In this document: one piece after another, positions 57,914 through 64,000 of the stretch
How positions within the stretch are numbered: the first letter of the stretch is position 1
How the letters are laid out: each line of letters starts with the position of its first letter
DNA from: Geobacteraceae bacterium
GTDB lineage: Bacteria > Desulfobacterota > Desulfuromonadia > Geobacterales > Geobacteraceae
Length of the DNA stretch: 64,000 nt
Direction: 5' to 3'
Assembly (NCBI GenBank): GCA_034933285.1
Contig: JAYFNT010000030.1
Span: 196 to 64,195 of the forward strand
Program-made: the position numbers and the translations under genes
Notes under the pieces: model-generated
What the model saw: the letters and a program-made list of their open reading frames with translations, nothing else
The model's database searches: none
Told to the model about the DNA's origin: nothing

Positions 57914-58139
57914 GGTTGAATGCATAAGAAGGGATTGAAGAGGAAGCCTCCGGTTGGTATTGATAGCTTGTATGGGCAAGCTGTCGGACCGGCACAGCCG
58001 TCCGGGATCACCAGTTTAAGTTCAGTTCAAAATTAAATCGTCAAGGTGTCCCCCGAAAAACCGACACTACCATGCAGTTCCGTGCAATTTCTGACCCCTT
58101 TGCAGTTCTGGGCCCGTACGGCTGGACAGATCGTTTTTT

Positions 58140-58183
58140 ACCTTGAAAATCCTGCTTGACATGCGGGATTTTCAAGGTAATAT
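58140..58183 (+). promoter_or_regulatory. sigma70-type promoter embedded in a 13-bp perfect inverted repeat (operator candidate)
   Basis: TTGACA (58156-58161)-N16-TAATAT (58178-58183). ACCTTGAAAATCC (58140-58152) and GGATTTTCAAGGT (58166-58178) bracket the -35 box. Confidence 0.6.
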
Positions 58184-58190
58184 GTTGGCC

Positions 58191-59333
58191 ATGATCCAGA
58201 GACCCACCCTTATCTCCGCTATCCGCACGGCTCTCGACCGAAGCCGCATCGTGGCGCTTCTAGGGCCGCGTCAGTGCGGGAAAACAACCCTGGCGCGCCA
58301 GTTCGTCAACCCGGATTCACTCAATTATTTCGACCTGGAAGATCCGCTGAGTCTTGCCCGGCTCGATGAGCCGATGACGGCACTCGGAGCGCTGAACGGG
58401 CTCGTGGTGATCGATGAAGTGCAACGGCGGCCCGAGCTGTTTACGGTATTGCGCGTACTGGCCGACCGGGACCCGCTTCCGGCGCGGTTCCTGATCCTGG
58501 GGAGCGCATCACCGTCTCTATTGCGGCAATCGTCCGAATCTCTCGCCGGCAGGCTGGAAACCGTTACCATCGGTGGATTCAGCCTCGGTGAGGTGGGGAC
58601 GGCGGCATGTGAACGACACTGGCTGCGTGGCGGGTTCCCCCTTTCTTTCCTGGGGGCCGCTGATTCAGACAGCCTGGCCTGGCGCAGGAATTTCATCCAG
58701 ACATTCCTGGAGCGTGACATGCCGCAATTCGGCATCACTACTCCCGCACCTACGCTCCTCAGATTCTGGACCATGTTGGCCCACTACCACGGCCAGATCT
58801 GGAATGCCGCCGAGCCCGCCCGTTCCCTCGGGGTGAACGAATCGACCACCCGCCGCTATCTCGACCTCATGGAGGGTGTGTTCATGGTACGGCAGCTTCA
58901 GCCCTGGCATGCCAACCTGAAAAAGCGGCAGATCAAATCTCCCAAGATCTACTTCCGCGACAGCGGGCTCCTCCACCAGCTGCTCGGTATCCGTACCATG
59001 GACGACCTTCTGCGCCACCCGAAGAGCGGCGCTTCATGGGAGGGATATGTCATCGAGGAAATCATCAAGCTGTCGGCGCCGGACGAGGTCTATTTCTGGG
59101 GGACTCACGGCGGAGCGGAACTGGATCTTCTTCTGATCAGTGATGGCCACCGTTTCGGCGTGGAGGTCAAGAGGATGGATGCGCCGAAGCTCACCCCGTC
59201 CATGCGGAACGCCCTGGAGGACCTGGAGCTCGACAGGCTCAAGGTGTTGTATCCCGGGAACAGGCGTTACCGCCTGGCTGAGCAGGTCGAGGTTATTCCC
59301 ATGGTGAATTTGGAAGAAGCAATGACAATGTAA
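58191..59333 (+). CDS. AAA+ ATPase with DUF4143-type C-terminal domain
   Basis: Walker A GPRQCGKTT, Walker B VVIDEVQ, and a C-terminal part typical of the AAA_14/DUF4143 family. ATG 58191 lies about 8 nt after the -10 box, so the transcript may be leaderless. ATG 58182 and TTG 58143 are alternatives. Confidence 0.8.
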   Translation: MIQRPTLISAIRTALDRSRIVALLGPRQCGKTTLARQFVNPDSLNYFDLEDPLSLARLDEPMTALGALNGLVVIDEVQRRPELFTVLRVLADRDPLPARFLILGSASPSLLRQSSESLAGRLETVTIGGFSLGEVGTAACERHWLRGGFPLSFLGAADSDSLAWRRNFIQTFLERDMPQFGITTPAPTLLRFWTMLAHYHGQIWNAAEPARSLGVNESTTRRYLDLMEGVFMVRQLQPWHANLKKRQIKSPKIYFRDSGLLHQLLGIRTMDDLLRHPKSGASWEGYVIEEIIKLSAPDEVYFWGTHGGAELDLLLISDGHRFGVEVKRMDAPKLTPSMRNALEDLELDRLKVLYPGNRRYRLAEQVEVIPMVNLEEAMTM

Positions 59334-59496: not shown

Positions 59497-59973
59497 ATGA
59501 AAGAGAAGATGAAGGACCTAGCCGAGAAGGCTAAAGAGGCAATGTCTTCAGCAGCAGTCCTTGTTGGTGACCTTAATGGAGATGGAAAGGTTGATCATGA
59601 GGATGCCAAGATTGCTGCTGAATGGGCGAAAAAACGTGCATCAGTAATTGGGGATGAAGCTGCAAAGCTTGGGAAAGAGGCCCTGGAATCAACCATGGTA
59701 AAAGATGCTGCTGCTGGTGCTGTTGTTGGTGCTGCCATTGCGATTCCAGTACCGGTGATCGGGCCTTTAGCTGGTGCAGCAATAGGTGCAGGACTCGGCG
59801 TTTACAAGAATATAGTTACAAGAGAACCTAATAGGAACCAGACAAAAGAACAACCACTCACTTCTATGGACGTACATGCGGAGCTAGTAAAATTTGATGA
59901 CCTTAGACAAAAAGGCATAATATCTGAGGAAGAATTTGAAGCGCACAAAAAGAGGCTATTAGCGACCTGCTAA
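59497..59973 (+). CDS. small membrane protein with EF-hand/dockerin-like DxNxDGxxD loop, glycine-zipper TM segment and C-terminal SHOCT domain
   Basis: GDLNGDGKVDHED, then AAAGAVVGAAIAIPVPVIGPLAGAAIGAGLGVY, then the SHOCT-like L.KFDDLRQKGIISEEEFEAHKKRLL. AGGAGG RBS. Confidence 0.6.
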   Translation: MKEKMKDLAEKAKEAMSSAAVLVGDLNGDGKVDHEDAKIAAEWAKKRASVIGDEAAKLGKEALESTMVKDAAAGAVVGAAIAIPVPVIGPLAGAAIGAGLGVYKNIVTREPNRNQTKEQPLTSMDVHAELVKFDDLRQKGIISEEEFEAHKKRLLATC

Positions 59974-60233: not shown

Positions 60234-60554
60234 TTATTCAATCAAGTCGTATATTTTTTCTGCCAGTTTACAAGAGTGAATGTTTTTGTACATATTCTCA
60301 GCAAGATCAGATATTTTATCAAATATCTGATCTTGCTTAAAACTAAAGTTTGCATATTGTGTCATAGCTCCAGAATTCATTAATCGTTTTAATACTACTT
60401 TCATTCTAGCATTGTTATTAGTCGTCAATATTTTGTTCTTAACTGATATGAAATAATCAGCTGTCGACATTTTTCCTGATTCATGCAATGATTTAATCAT
60501 CTCATCCATTAAATCCAACAAGCACAGCCAAGGGGGCAGGGCTACACTTTTCAT
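60234..60554 (-). CDS. hypothetical small protein (possible orphan immunity gene)
   Basis: 106-aa AT-rich ORF in the same orientation as the RHS gene. It contains a 17-19-bp perfect hairpin (60300-60337), so coding status is uncertain. Confidence 0.3.
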   Translation of the reverse strand: MKSVALPPWLCLLDLMDEMIKSLHESGKMSTADYFISVKNKILTTNNNARMKVVLKRLMNSGAMTQYANFSFKQDQIFDKISDLAENMYKNIHSCKLAEKIYDLIE

Positions 60555-60631
60555 ATTTTGAATAGTTCCTTGATCTGGGCCACCATTTCCCCCAGATTCT
60601 CATCCCTTTCCATTTTCGCTTGAAAAGGGTA

Positions 60632-60690
60632 GGGGGCAGGTCTCAACACTTGACATTGAATGTTGATTGTTGAGACCTGACCCCTGGGGT
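60632..60690. repeat. GTCAGGTCT-family hairpin repeat
   Basis: CAGGTCTCAACA (60637-60648) / TGTTGAGACCTG (60668-60679), followed by ACCCCTGGGG. A half-copy, CCCTGACCCCTGGGGG, is at 61131-61151. Confidence 0.8.
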
Positions 60691-60735
60691 TCCCGGGTGG
60701 ACTGTCGGGTGATTACCATCTCTGTATAAATAGAA

Positions 60736-61077
60736 TTATTTACCATATGATGTTTTCAGAATATTGCCCGTTATGGGATCGATAGTTACATCTAAACCAT
60801 CCCAGTTACACAGTATCAACTCATTGTTCATTATTTTCATGCCAGTATATGGGCTGTCTTGATATACATGGTCAATTTTGGGAATCTGCCATAATAGGTT
60901 GCCATTATGTGATATTCCATATACGTTTTCATTGAACAAAACTTTGTATGGAATATCGAGTCGTACAATTATAACTTCTGGAAATATCATTAATTCAGTA
61001 ATATTATGCTGAAATGGAATGGTTATTCCTGATTTTAAAAAGAGAATATTTGATTTGAAAACAATATTTTCTGCCAT
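60736..61077 (-). CDS. hypothetical small protein (possible orphan immunity gene)
   Basis: 113-aa AT-rich ORF with predicted beta-rich sequence, downstream of the RHS toxin in the same orientation. Confidence 0.4.
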   Translation of the reverse strand: MAENIVFKSNILFLKSGITIPFQHNITELMIFPEVIIVRLDIPYKVLFNENVYGISHNGNLLWQIPKIDHVYQDSPYTGMKIMNNELILCNWDGLDVTIDPITGNILKTSYGK

Positions 61078-61184
61078 TTATAAATCCCTTGTATTTTTAT
61101 AAGCTGACTCAGGAAGCCTATCTTGAAATGTGTAGCCCTGACCCCTGGGGGTGTCCCTTGTAGTTCTTCGTGCTAACAGTATTT

Positions 61185-61439
61185 TCAAATTGATTTACTT
61201 AGCTTATTAAGCAGACTATACCATTCACTTATTGATAAACTTTTTACATACAAGTCACCAAGCCATTTAGGGTGACACATATCTTTTATTTTACGTGCAA
61301 TGATAATTTTATCTTCCTTAGAAGAGGAAAAATAATTTACAACCAAGTCTTCAAGTGTATCCGCTTCTTCTGATAAATTATTTTCTGTCAGTATCTCTAA
61401 TATTCTGGCAATAGCTTCTGTGTTCAAAATTATCCTCAT
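61185..61439 (-). CDS. hypothetical small helical protein (possible orphan immunity gene)
   Basis: 84-aa AT-rich ORF in the same orientation. The upstream segment 61440-61650 contains a degenerate RHS-boundary-like peptide. Confidence 0.4.
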   Translation of the reverse strand: MRIILNTEAIARILEILTENNLSEEADTLEDLVVNYFSSSKEDKIIIARKIKDMCHPKWLGDLYVKSLSISEWYSLLNKLSKSI

Positions 61440-61650: not shown

Positions 61651-62094
61651 TTATTTTACTCGCACTTTAATCTGCCAAGTTTCTTTCACACTATCACCAA
61701 CAACCACAGCTCCATCAATTAGTATTATTCTAGAATCATAAATACGAACTTTCAAATCCTTAACTCCGTCATTATAAGGTAGCTCCTTTTTGCAATGAGG
61801 GCACTTTACGTTTGCCCAAAGGGTAAATTGCCCACCATCTAAAGCTGGTGGAGCATCTTTTAGACATTCTTTCCAGATGATTTCAAGCTCAGCTAGTAAT
61901 AGTTTTTTATTCTCTAATATTTCGTGTACTTTTTCTCCATCGCTTTTTCTAAGCAAGACATCATTGCTTGAATCTGAATAAAAAAATGGAGTTGGTACAA
62001 ACCAATTGACAAAATAGGTGTATAGAATTGTTTTGCTGCAGAATGGACATTCCAATGTCCATCCATCACGTATTATTTGTTCCGGTTCGTTCAT
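61651..62094 (-). CDS. zinc-ribbon protein, candidate cognate immunity protein of the RHS C-terminal toxin
   Basis: 147 aa with two CxxC pairs (CPFC, CPHC). Its ATG overlaps the RHS TGA (ATGA at 62091-62094). It shares the AT-rich composition of the toxin tip. Confidence 0.55.
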   Translation of the reverse strand: MNEPEQIIRDGWTLECPFCSKTILYTYFVNWFVPTPFFYSDSSNDVLLRKSDGEKVHEILENKKLLLAELEIIWKECLKDAPPALDGGQFTLWANVKCPHCKKELPYNDGVKDLKVRIYDSRIILIDGAVVVGDSVKETWQIKVRVK

Positions 62095-64000
62095 GGTTCA
62101 ACCTCCACAATAATCTGCCGAATACCCGGCCCTCCAGCACTTGGAATCCCTTGTATGGTTATCTCAGGTCCACCTCCAGGAAGGCCATTTCCTCCACCTT
62201 TAAATATAACATTTCCTGATATAGGTGAAGCGGGCGTACGCTTTGGAATGTCACGAACAATAGACAAAATATTTCTTGATTCTAACGATTTTGGAATTAA
62301 CCCCAACTCATTTTCAAGTTGGCGAGCTTGTGCGTTTGTAATTCGTATTCGATTTCCTTTTGGAAGTTTCCCAATTATTTTGGTTATTGCCTCGGGTGTC
62401 GTCACGAATGTTCGCCCGCCTCTACCAATTATTCGATATTTCACAGCCACGCTTCGTGGTGTTATATTTGCTCCGGTTTTAAAAATAGAATTCTTGCACA
62501 ACCCCAACGGATCGACCCACTGCATGGGGTCATGCACATAACCATGGGTCCTGAGCCCTCCTTCCAGCCCGATGGGGTCGGGGCTCAAATACTGCCCGCT
62601 GTCTGGATCATAATACCGATTCAGGTTGTAGAAAAGACCTGTTTCCGCATCCTCCCACTGGTTCTGGAACCTGAGGCTGCAGCCGACAAGGGGCAGATGG
62701 CTGTCTGGCCTCGTCTTCAGCGGCTTGACGGTTGTTCTTCCCCACAGCTCCTGATCTGCCTGCCACAGACATTCGCCGTCGGCGTCGAACATCTCCTTCG
62801 GCGTACCCAGGTGATCGGTGACGATGAGGTGGAAGTTCGCCTCCGTGTCTTCCTTGCCTGAAACGGTGCGCGTTTCCTTGGCGACCGGGTTGAACGTTCC
62901 CGGCTCGAAGTGCCAGCGGGTGGTGGCAAGCAGCGAGTCGTCTTCACGGGGATCGGTTTCCCATTCTTCGATAAGCGTGGCGCCCTGCCAGAAATAATAT
63001 GTCGATAGTTGTTTGCCGGACTCTCCCGCCTTGAGGCATTCTTTCCTGATGCGCCTGCCGAAGGCGTCGTAGGTGTAGCGCCAGACGGCGCCGTCCGGCG
63101 TTCTGGTTTCGACGAGCCGGTCAAAATCATCCCAGAGGTATCTCCAGGTCTTGGGTCGGAAGCCGTTGCGCTCGATTCTTTTTTCCGTCACCCGGCCGCG
63201 GACGTCATAGCGGTAGCTGGTCGGTCCGATGGCCCGGACGGTCCCGTCCCGGTAGCGGTGACTCTGGCCGGAGCTCTCGGCCAGGTTGAGGAGCTCGTCG
63301 TAGCTGAACCGCTCTTCGACGTGCTTGTTCAGGCCGGTCTGGCGGATGATGCCGGTGACCTGGTCGCGCGGATCGTAATGATAGCTGCTTGAACCACGCT
63401 TGTTGTCGCTTATCCCGATCAGCCTCCCGGACTTGTCCAGGCGGTAGCGGCGCGACACCTCGGCCAGCCGCTCATGGGTCGAGAGCTGCCGCTCCCGCCC
63501 GGCCAGCTGGCGCTTCAGCCGTCCGCACGGGTCGTAGCTCTGCTTCAGGGTGAAAGCGTCGAGCGGCTTTTTGTCTTCTGCCCGGTACTGCCTCTGGGTT
63601 TCCAGCCCCCGCTCGTCCCTGGTGAAATCCAGGCTGTGGCCGTTGCTTTCCAGCCCTTTCAGCTGACCTGCCTTGTCGAAGCCGTAGCGCGTCGCGCCTG
63701 TTGGGCTGGTGCGGCTGATGCAGCGGCCCGAGGCATCGTACGCGTATTCGAAGTCAATGCCGTTCTGGATCTCTTTTGCCAGCCATCCCTTGTCGTCGTA
63801 AACGAACTGCAGGTCGCTTTCCCGCTCCTCGTTTTCCTTGCCGAAGGTCGATGCCCTGACGAGACGGTCGGAATTGTCGTATTCATAGCTGATGCGCTGT
63901 TTTTCGGTATCGACTGCAGCAATCCGGTCCTGTTCGTCCCAGGTGAGGCGCTGCTCGACGCCGTCGGGCAGCCGCTTGGAGATGACGCGGCCTATCGCGT
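62091..64000 (-). CDS. RHS/YD-repeat polymorphic toxin, 3' part (5' end outside the window)
   Basis: YD repeats (YRYD..GR., WRYTYDAFGRR). By my own partial translation the frame is open at least to about 63700, and no annotated ORF boundary interrupts it. The core-end motif is RYYDPDSGQYLSPDPIGLEGG...YVHDPMQWVDPLGL. A 135-aa C-terminal domain follows (62094-62498). Confidence 0.85.
   Translation of the reverse strand, partial: AIGRVISKRLPDGVEQRLTWDEQDRIAAVDTEKQRISYEYDNSDRLVRASTFGKENEERESDLQFVYDDKGWLAKEIQNGIDFEYAYDASGRCISRTSPTGATRYGFDKAGQLKGLESNGHSLDFTRDERGLETQRQYRAEDKKPLDAFTLKQSYDPCGRLKRQLAGRERQLSTHERLAEVSRRYRLDKSGRLIGISDNKRGSSSYHYDPRDQVTGIIRQTGLNKHVEERFSYDELLNLAESSGQSHRYRDGTVRAIGPTSYRYDVRGRVTEKRIERNGFRPKTWRYLWDDFDRLVETRTPDGAVWRYTYDAFGRRIRKECLKAGESGKQLSTYYFWQGATLIEEWETDPREDDSLLATTRWHFEPGTFNPVAKETRTVSGKEDTEANFHLIVTDHLGTPKEMFDADGECLWQADQELWGRTTVKPLKTRPDSHLPLVGCSLRFQNQWEDAETGLFYNLNRYYDPDSGQYLSPDPIGLEGGLRTHGYVHDPMQWVDPLGLCKNSIFKTGANITPRSVAVKYRIIGRGGRTFVTTPEAITKIIGKLPKGNRIRITNAQARQLENELGLIPKSLESRNILSIVRDIPKRTPASPISGNVIFKGGGNGLPGGGPEITIQGIPSAGGPGIRQIIVEVEP

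Follow-up and report, generated by a model that had tools for sequence, protein, structure and literature searches.

The stretch of Geobacteraceae DNA analysed here (64,000 nucleotides, hereafter the window) ends in a polymorphic-toxin cassette: an Rhs protein gene with a compositionally foreign C-terminus. In the ORF list of the window, the Rhs frame on the minus strand has its stop end at 62091 and stays open past the window end at 64000 (Table 1). Pfam recognizes RHS_repeat (E 3.5e-31) and RHS (E 1.6e-12) in its product. The core is closed by DPIGL (62565-62579) and DPLGL (62499-62513), which are spaced by 17 residues; no further DPxGL motif occurs anywhere in the window. The arrangement DPxGL-x17-DPxGL is the canonical signature of C-terminal autoproteolysis in Rhs proteins. 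GC content is 0.611 in the core, 0.425 in the tip domain that follows and 0.359 in the downstream ORF, and the fall from 0.61 to 0.43 coincides exactly with the DPLGL motif.

Table 1. Features of the cassette and of the adjoining AT-rich island (window coordinates)
Feature	Position	Strand	Basis
Rhs (YD-repeat) core gene, 3' part	62499..64000	-	Pfam RHS_repeat/RHS; DPIGL-x17-DPLGL; GC 0.611
C-terminal toxin domain (tip), 135 aa	62094..62498	-	ART-like predicted fold; Tne5/SPN-like predicted NAD(P)+ glycohydrolase
Rhs stop codon TGA	62091..62093	-	Read from sequence; overlaps start codon of downstream gene (ATGA)
Predicted cognate immunity protein, 147 aa	61651..62094	-	Conserved adjacency to tip; two CPxC motifs
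Small ORFs of the AT-rich island, 84 / 113 / 106 aa	61185-61439 / 60736-61077 / 60234-60554	-	ORF list

The 5' part of the Rhs gene is missing: the window cuts it, and so does the source contig, which stops 986 bp further on. The identical immunity protein is encoded on a 64,986-bp contig of a Geobacteraceae MAG, from which we infer that the gene is truncated by the contig's end; the N-terminus with its delivery domain is absent from the assembly. The cassette is also present on further contigs, each of 6.6 kb or less. The closest relatives of the Rhs core (59-66% identity) are PAAR-Rhs proteins in VgrG/DcrB(EagR)/TssFG contexts, with the gene arrangement TssF/G - VgrG - DcrB - PAAR-Rhs. Their tips differ, and the present tip is lacking from L011-L018. 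Different tips on closely related cores are what cassette exchange predicts. Three features of an Rhs polymorphic toxin are present: a YD/RHS core with motif and variable tip, a tip that is exchangeable, and a predicted immunity gene directly downstream. A preliminary description of this DNA had proposed an Rhs polymorphic toxin with a canonical DPIGL...DPLGL boundary, a switch from GC-rich core to AT-rich tip exactly there, and a displaced or newly acquired C-terminal toxin. The Pfam matches and the motif spacing, the GC values, and the foreign composition together with the other tips on related cores bear out these three claims in turn.

The predicted immunity gene and its surroundings

The start codon of the downstream ORF overlaps the Rhs stop codon, which suggests translational coupling, and tip and downstream ORF likewise abut or overlap in L004, L005 and L009. 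Homologs of the 147-residue product lie directly downstream of the tip in seven independent contexts (the window, L004, L005, L007, L009/L010, L019 and L021). That the ORF behaves as a cognate immunity gene, as implied earlier, is consistent with its conserved adjacency. The protein family comprises 59 clusters found in our searches and carries two invariant CPxC knuckles, C16/C19 and C98/C101. It matches no curated family and no PDB sequence, and its Pfam matches to zinc ribbons are sub-threshold only. An immunity-protein profile gave no match in contexts of the L006 type. We predict that these CPxC...CPxC proteins form a new, zinc-ribbon-like family of putative immunity proteins.

Beyond this gene, the remainder of the AT-rich island (60234..61439) holds three co-directional small ORFs with a GC content of 0.23-0.51, which may be putative orphan immunity genes. 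Neither a DPxGL motif nor a YD remnant lies ahead of any of them, and the surroundings of the island yielded no orphan core remnant, no tRNA and no long flanking repeat. A precomputed match of the 113-residue product to DUF7957 was not reproduced by hmmscan. Short GC-rich intergenic repeats are the only repeats found around the island.

The tip and its sequence family

Which kind of toxin would such a partner neutralise? The tip contains no His, no Trp, no Met and a single Asp, a composition that had been noted before and that we confirm, and its pI is ~11. It matches nothing in Pfam or NCBIfam at E<=1, nor any PDB sequence, and searches of Pfam, NCBIfam and PDB sequences with tip profiles built from 9 and from 86 sequences found no match either. 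None of the 86 family members matches TNT (PF14021) or any other family in Pfam. The lack of His, the lack of a profile match and the ART-like fold predicted below also rule out an HNH, GHH, SHH or other His-metal nuclease and a deaminase, both of which the preliminary description had already disfavoured. An MBF1/HTH-like match to the segment ITxxQARQLExxLGL (E 0.13) was dropped; it is non-significant, and the segment forms one of the helices of the predicted ART fold.

Clustered at 50% identity, the tip family has 203 representatives or more; the domain sits at the extreme C-terminus in 143 of the 154 members examined. Its carriers include Rhs proteins and TPS/CdiA-like proteins; the pair of tip and immunity protein also caps CdiA-like proteins in Pandoraea and Paraburkholderia, among them the cultured strains of Pandoraea pulmonicola and Paraburkholderia graminis at L019 and L021. 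Judged from these sequences, the cassette is mobile between delivery platforms. Hosts include MAGs of Geobacteraceae, Verrucomicrobiota and Kiritimatiellota as well as cultured Burkholderiales. Orphan cassette fragments occur, for instance beside a Y1 transposase in L004.

Among 133 members, the net charge lies anywhere between -12 and +11 (median 0), and only 51 are free of His. The basic, His-free character emphasized earlier is accordingly true of the present copy and not a trait of the family. We therefore no longer read the high pI as a hint at nucleic-acid targets; a charge left unconstrained across the family fits a small-molecule substrate. Some 20 positions show family-wide conservation, and in the window the tip is encoded by an intact ORF that continues the reading frame of the core. 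Positions conserved in at least 90% of members include G9, N11, P14, G25, E62, G66, N96 and F99 (tip numbering), together with a motif G-x-G-x-(G/H)-L-P-G-G-x-P-E that ends at E112.

Predicted fold and kinship with SPN and Tne5

An AlphaFold (AF2) model of the tip, built from the 86-sequence alignment, reached a pLDDT of 95.4 and a pTM of 0.89. It replaced an earlier AF2 model from 9 sequences (pLDDT 71), whose best fold match (E 0.66) was unusable. Compared with the PDB by Foldseek, the best three matches of the new model are all structures of the Streptococcus pyogenes NAD+ glycohydrolase SPN (3pnt, 4kt6, 7wvh). They span the whole domain with 136-139 aligned columns, probabilities of 0.89-0.99 and TM scores of 0.46-0.57 (0.57 for 4kt6_A), at individual E-values of only 0.014-0.09. 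Other ART-fold enzymes follow in the PDB ranking, Tpt1 being next, and the top four matches in BFVD include an RNA 2'-phosphotransferase and DarT. The tip is confidently predicted to adopt an ART-like fold of the SPN/Tne5 type.

Tne5 is the Rhs^Pg-CT of Pluralibacter gergoviae ATCC 33028 (Desjardins et al., J Biol Chem 2026, PMC13285283). This Rhs-borne, ART-fold protein was shown by experiment to be an NAD(P) glycohydrolase, and its closest PDB structure is SPN 4KT6 (PMC13285283). With hhalign, the tip family aligns to Tne5^Pg at 95.2% probability (E 2.6e-8) and to the Tne5 family profile at 97.4% (E 1.1e-11, 100 columns). The pairwise BLASTP comparison of tip and Tne5 is non-significant (E 0.06). 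When HMMs of one family are scored against sequences of the other, the result is 8-29 bits, with 8 bits for the Tne5 HMM on the present tip, as against at least 73 bits within the tip family. The single-iteration JackHMMER search by which the Tne5 family was defined (PMC13285283) would probably miss this tip. The profile-profile comparisons support homology of the tip family to Tne5, to which it would be a remotely linked sister family; BLASTP and the HMM-to-sequence searches do not connect the two.

The preliminary description had left the tip unassigned to any toxin family. This stands as far as standard profile libraries are concerned, but not against the hhalign link to Tne5. Its suggestion of a new effector fold or activity fares worse: the fold is predicted to be ART-like, SPN takes the top three places, and there is profile-profile homology to Tne5. 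It had itself named a confident match of the tip to a known toxin family, by profile or by structure, as refuting, and such a match has in substance been found in the SPN fold and the Tne5 alignment.

The nine residues that line the modelled NAD pocket of Tne5 are K1392, I1393, R1399, P1404, F1409, L1434, N1467, E1482 and Q1487 (PMC13285283). Four of the positions placed around NADH in that paper are aligned and conserved in the tip family (E112/E1482, N96/N1467, F31/F1409 and L65/L1434; PMC13285283). Four others are changed in the tip (K1392 to P14, R1399 to Y21, P1404 to R26 and Q1487 to G117). P14, which stands opposite K1392, is invariant in the tip family. K1392 is the sole Tne5 residue whose mutation attenuated activity, mutation of E1482 had little effect, and the K1392A and E1482A mutants left the catalytic residues of Tne5 unpinned (PMC13285283). 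N96, F99 (Trp in Tne5), E62 and E112 are common to both families.

Could the tip carry some other, undescribed activity on an ART-like scaffold, or be a non-enzymatic or decayed remnant? The superfamily's catalytic residues are not established, the tip belongs to no curated family, and orphan fragments such as that in L004 exist. Against this stand the conserved positions and the intact frame described above, and the conservation of the NAD-pocket residues that tip and Tne5 have in common. The retention of the immunity gene in seven contexts argues, in addition, for an active and dangerous enzyme. We regard this possibility as quite improbable.

A second possibility is an ART-fold ADP-ribosyltransferase that modifies RNA, DNA or protein in the manner of RhsP2, Tre23, Tre1 or DarT, and is not an NAD+ hydrolase. 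Such an enzyme would have the predicted fold, Tpt1/KptA and DarT recur as secondary matches, and the present copy is very basic. Moreover, the Glu that opens the strand after the long loop is invariant in 133 of 134 cases, like the catalytic Glu of the transferases, and yet Tne5 can do without the same Glu in its NADase activity (PMC13285283). However, the best structural neighbours (SPN three times) and the sole characterised relative detectable by sequence, Tne5, are strict hydrolases. Tne5 neither labels proteins nor inhibits transcription or translation (PMC13285283). The basic charge is not kept in the family, and neither an R-S-E nor an H-Y-E triad is evident, so that we consider a transferase of this kind unlikely. 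Doubtful, too, is a more radical variant in which the family would be a distinct branch of the SPN/Tne5 superfamily. It would comprise ADP-ribosyltransferases whose acceptor, a macromolecule or a small molecule, is new, and the zinc-ribbon immunity proteins would form a new class with a mode of action unlike that of the loop-insertion inhibitors of NADase toxins.

One could also liken the GLPGGGxE stretch of the tip to the GGGxQ motif of TNT-type NADases, and place the tip with Tne1-4 (Tse6, Tne2, Rhs1CT). Tne2 (6b12) did match the first, low-confidence model at a TM score of 0.29. For the confident model, however, no TNT, Tse6, Tne2, Rhs1CT or AfNADase structure is found among the 50 Foldseek matches listed, and 0 of 86 members match PF14021. 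We rejected the motif assignment. The Tne5 paper, for its part, puts the SPN-like clade outside Tne1-4 (PMC13285283), and membership of the tip in the TNT group is in our judgement extremely improbable.

Proposed mechanism and comparison with known systems

We favour, at a probability of roughly 0.63, the reading that the tip is an NADase of a Tne5/SPN-like sister family, carried by an Rhs cassette together with its CxxC...CxxC immunity partner. The Rhs shell would enclose the 135-residue tip, and the aspartyl autoprotease motif DPIGL-x17-DPLGL, itself seen in the sequence, would free it by cleavage. To judge from the closest core relatives, a T6SS VgrG/PAAR spike would most likely carry the tip into an adjacent cell. 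There, the domain predicted with confidence to adopt the ADP-ribosyltransferase-like (ART) fold of SPN/Tne5 type would most likely hydrolyse NAD+ and NADP+ to nicotinamide and ADP-ribose. Depletion of the cofactor pool would then stop growth; both steps are proposed from homology and fold. The pocket is probably lined by N96, F99 and the GLPGGGPE loop with E112, all invariant in the family, and in addition by F31, L65 and E62. In the producer, the 147-residue CxxC...CxxC protein, taken as the immunity protein from its conserved adjacency, would probably form a 1:1 complex with the tip that closes off the NAD cleft.

The novelty lies in the sequence family, which is separate and uncurated, and in the immunity family; the toxin itself is of a known kind, and the understanding of Rhs toxins is unchanged by the finding. 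If the favoured reading is true, a large uncurated sister family (at least 203 representatives) joins the SPN/Tne5-type NADase toxins, and a previously undescribed zinc-ribbon-like immunity family is added. Comparison of tip and Tne5 narrows the candidates for the catalytic residues of the superfamily to N96, F99 (Trp in Tne5), E62 and E112. A profile from the tip-family alignment would let pipelines label tips that are now called 'hypothetical'.

Like the tip, Tne5 forms the C-terminus of an Rhs protein and follows DPxGL-x17-DPxGL, with an ART-like split-sheet fold in which a long loop takes the place of beta4 and to which SPN 4KT6 is closest. The two have the motifs IG..G.FV, LE..LGL..G.L, G(A)N..F/W and GG.PE..I in common, and both families use Rhs and CDI platforms and are absent from Pfam. 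The tip is shorter (135 residues versus 174) and has an extra C-terminal strand (residues 126-134). Its 147-residue immunity protein with CPxC...CPxC is unrelated to Tni5, which has ~72 residues and lacks Cys knuckles. NADase activity is demonstrated for Tne5, whereas that of the tip is a prediction.

SPN/NGA (3PNT, 4KT6, 7WVH), the best whole-domain structural match to the tip model, hydrolyses NAD+, belongs to the ART superfamily and has an immunity factor of its own that neutralises it, as is predicted for the tip. In contrast to this likeness of fold, sequence identity is 14-15%, and no sequence-profile search links the tip to the PDB. The catalytic domain of SPN is larger, it enters host cells through streptolysin O and not by way of Rhs or CdiA, and the SPN inhibitor IFS has no relationship to the CxxC immunity protein of the tip. 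Tpt1/KptA, DarT and Rhs toxins of the Tre23/RhsP2 type have the ART scaffold in common with the tip, as secondary fold matches (TM 0.33-0.42). They score below SPN, have no sequence-profile link to the tip, and move ADP-ribose to nucleic acid or protein, not to water. Tne1-Tne4 (Tse6, Tne2 and Serratia Rhs1CT; PMC10539506) differ in structural subtype, being absent from the listed fold matches and from the Pfam results for the tip family, where no TNT match occurs. They nevertheless resemble the tip in the predicted outcome, NAD(P)+ depletion, in the logic of Rhs/PAAR delivery and in their tight 1:1 immunity proteins (PMC10539506).

The Rhs gene and its C-terminal cassette

Translation of the truncated Rhs gene reveals seven RHS_repeat stretches (E 3.5e-31) and an RHS core-end domain (E 1.6e-12) by Pfam search. 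A six-frame scan of the 64-kb window found just two DPxGL motifs, both in this gene. They are spaced by 17 residues, an arrangement (DPxGL-x17-DPxGL) quoted as an autoproteolysis signature for Rhs proteins (PMC13285283). Directly after DPLGL, GC content drops from 0.611 in the core to 0.425 in the C-terminal toxin domain, here called the tip, and low GC continues, at 0.359 in the next gene and then in an island of ~2.3 kb down to about 60200. The tip is devoid of His, Trp and Met, contains a single Asp and has a pI of ~11. Boundary, GC drop and composition thus bear out, at the coordinates given, what the preliminary description had observed. Together with the downstream ORF, which encodes the predicted cognate immunity protein, the tip almost certainly constitutes an Rhs toxin/immunity cassette.

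Features of the window and of compared loci (L004-L021: metagenome or MAG contigs and genomes)
Feature	Locus	Position	Strand	Remark
Partial Rhs ORF	window	62091-64000	-	ORF translation; enters at 64000, stops at 62091
DPIGL motif	window	62565-62579	-	motif scan
DPLGL motif	window	62499-62513	-	motif scan
Tip	window	62094-62498	-	135 aa
Predicted immunity ORF	window	61651-62094	-	147 aa; ATG start overlaps Rhs TGA
Three small ORFs	window	60234-61439	-	84, 113 and 106 aa
CCCCAGGGGTCAGGGCTACA-like elements	window	60528-60553, 60631-60685, 61124-61150		~22-27 nt
SHOCT-domain gene	window	59497-59973	+	borders AT-rich island, side away from Rhs gene
AAA_14/DUF4143 ATPase gene	window	58143-59333	+	borders AT-rich island, side away from Rhs gene
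Inverted repeat	window	58138-58180		21-nt arms; start of ATPase gene
Orphan Rhs fragment	L011	12263-14416		~715 aa
Orphan Rhs fragment	L017	10478-12616		~715 aa
Orphan tip and immunity gene	L004	4860-6923		tip in 161-aa ORF
CdiA-like protein, immunity homolog 3'	L019, L021	1-9339 each

Three more co-directional small ORFs lie 3' of the immunity gene in the same AT-rich island, with neither Rhs-core nor DPxGL remnants found ahead of them; they may be orphan immunity genes. The 113-aa product has a precomputed match to DUF7957 that was not reproduced by hmmscan. A GC-rich, partly palindromic element resembling CCCCAGGGGTCAGGGCTACA is repeated in the intergenic gaps that separate the AT-rich ORFs, and may represent a REP-like element or terminator.

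A 64,986-bp contig of a Geobacteraceae MAG carries the annotation of an immunity protein identical to the window's; the assembly itself therefore lacks the N-terminus of the Rhs protein. Among metagenome sequences, the closest Rhs cores (59-66% identity) belong to PAAR-DUF6531-Rhs proteins of 1,461-1,507 residues, none of those examined carrying this tip or its immunity gene. Genes for a DcrB/EagR-type chaperone and VgrG are located 5' of them, in one case with TssF/G too. Because these core relatives are PAAR-Rhs proteins with chaperone and VgrG nearby, the T6SS would be a likely delivery route for the window toxin. In L011 and L017, an orphan Rhs C-terminal fragment follows a full PAAR-Rhs gene and its immunity gene. 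Since these fragments match the window core as well as the main genes do, the window copy could itself be an orphan fragment rather than a main gene.

Distribution of the tip and its predicted immunity partner

Can the tip be assigned to a toxin family? Searches of Pfam and NCBIfam (hmmscan, E<=1) and of PDB sequences (phmmer) returned no match, and the initial impression of an unassignable domain holds for these standard libraries. A word-indexed search retrieved only 8 relatives (52-79% identity), with the domain C-terminal in all and one of them named 'filamentous hemagglutinin' by its source. An exhaustive profile search of 1.84 billion cluster representatives yielded 203 proteins with the cutoff set at E<=1e-3, of which 161 also passed E<=1e-10. 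Of the 154 proteins listed, 143 have the domain ending at most 15 residues from the C-terminus. Carriers include Rhs proteins with RHS_repeat, DUF6531, lectin or LysM N-terminal parts, as well as a TPS/hemagglutinin-repeat protein of 4,898 aa. Across 134 sequences, G9, N11, G25, G66, N96, F99 and E112 (the latter in 133) are invariant or nearly so; P14, G43, E62, L67, L72, P92, G95, G101, G103, L106, P107 and G109 are kept in at least 90%, and T30, T33 and P89 are slightly less conserved. No Pfam model matched any of 86 diverse members at E<=1, and the family profile found nothing among PDB sequences. The family is real, sizeable and uncurated.

Homologs of the immunity protein are encoded directly 3' of the tip in an orphan cassette next to a Y1 transposase gene (L004), in a Verrucomicrobiota MAG (L005), a Pontiellaceae MAG (L007) and two soil metagenome contigs (L009, L010). 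A shorter homolog of 112 aa follows CdiA-like TPS proteins from Pandoraea pulmonicola (L019) and Paraburkholderia graminis (L021). These proteins are ~3,800-4,000 aa long, and their C-termini reach 167-181 bits with the tip-family profile. L008, the most divergent of the tip homologs examined, is paired with an unrelated partner. The immunity family comprises 59 clusters, in which two CPxC knuckles are invariant; Pfam gave only sub-threshold zinc-ribbon matches, and PDB sequences contained no relatives. We infer a protective role and metal binding.

In P. pulmonicola, an island of further small genes, among them Imm74 and one resembling bacterial RNase A, follows the immunity homolog; both this host and P. 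graminis are cultured and usable for experiments. The L004 cassette, which lacks an Rhs core, lies directly 3' of a Y1_Tnp gene (REP-associated-type tyrosine transposase) amid housekeeping genes, a neighbourhood that hints at one route of cassette movement.

Predicted fold and activity

With 9 sequences, AlphaFold2 produced a mediocre model (pLDDT 71) whose fold match lacked significance; with the 86-sequence alignment, the model reached a pLDDT of 95.4 and a pTM of 0.89, with no segment below 50. The preliminary description had proposed profile searches of Pfam, which came back empty, and structure prediction with Foldseek, which placed Streptococcus pyogenes NAD+ glycohydrolase (SPN) on top. 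The three best PDB matches of the tip model are all this one protein: 3pnt_A (E 0.014, probability 0.97, query TM 0.46), 4kt6_A (E 0.024, 0.99, 0.57) and 7wvh_A (E 0.088, 0.89, 0.50), each over 136-139 columns, which amounts to the entire domain. Tpt1 forms the next coherent group; it is an RNA 2'-phosphotransferase and NAD-using enzyme of ADP-ribosyltransferase-like (ART) fold (TM 0.33-0.41). Searched against a library of viral structures, the model has an RNA 2'-phosphotransferase and a DarT ADP-ribosyltransferase within its four best matches. Taken singly, the E-values are not strong, yet all meaningful matches, from two libraries and two models, are NAD-utilising enzymes of the ART superfamily, with SPN consistently first. 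Judged from the model, the tip very probably adopts the ART fold of SPN/Tne5 type, Tne5 being the Rhs-borne NAD(P)+ glycohydrolase tip of Pluralibacter gergoviae.

The predicted activity is NAD(P)+ glycohydrolysis (probability roughly 0.6-0.65). A macromolecule-directed ADP-ribosyltransferase, the activity that DarT represents among the matches, is the main alternative and seems unlikely. Neither basic charge nor absence of His is conserved across the family: the earlier description of a basic and histidine-free tip is accurate for the window copy, fails as a family trait and carries no mechanistic weight. Such freely varying surface charge suits a small-molecule substrate, as a glycohydrolase would use, slightly better than a nucleic-acid one.

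Relation to Tne5 and to Tne1-4

Tne1-4 are families of NADases of the TNT type (PMC10539506). Assignment of the tip to them was rejected because they are absent among the fold matches listed and Pfam gave no TNT match.

The Tne5^Pg gene was retrieved from the type-strain genome (ATCC 33028) through a back-translated pattern of the K1392 mutagenesis oligo. Aligned by hhalign with the single Tne5^Pg-CT sequence, the tip-family alignment gave 95.2% probability (E 2.6e-8, 99 columns), and with an alignment of 27 sequences (Tne5^Pg-CT plus 26 homologs of the prototype's own family) 97.4% (E 1.1e-11, 100 columns). Aligned pairs are E112/E1482, N96/N1467, F31/F1409, L65/L1434 and E62/E1431; four of the nine residues surrounding NADH in Tne5 (PMC13285283) are kept in the tip family, namely F1409, L1434, N1467 and E1482. 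In Tne5, the Glu that is invariant across the superfamily is reportedly dispensable (PMC13285283). The four residues following the cleavage motif are common to the two families (Tne5 DPWGL\SCKNS, window tip DPLGL\CKNS, the backslash marking the end of the motif), a match that could stem from a common junction or linker or be fortuitous.

Does the tip then belong to Tne5 proper? Compared by BLASTP, tip and Tne5^Pg-CT reach E 0.064. With the Tne5-family HMM, the tip scores 8 bits and no tip-family member exceeds 29; with the tip-family HMM, members of the Tne5 family stay at or below 23 bits, against at least 73 (median 167) for the tip family's own sequences. Unlike Tne5^Pg, which stops ~21 residues past the Glu, the tip family has an extra C-terminal strand (residues 126-134). 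In Tne5, only mutation of K1392 attenuated toxicity (PMC13285283); this residue pairs with Pro14 of the tip, a Pro in 123 of 134 family sequences, and the immunity proteins of the two families are unrelated. Because of these weak cross-family scores, the extra strand, the K1392/Pro14 exchange and the unrelated immunity proteins, we file the tip as a putative sister family inside an SPN/Tne5-type superfamily and outside Tne5 in the strict sense. The earlier interpretation is borne out in part: standard libraries do leave the tip unassigned, but the suggestion of a new effector fold or activity is not supported, given the ART/SPN fold match and the distant Tne5 homology. The tip is remotely related to an already described kind of toxin and is predicted to be new in neither fold nor activity.
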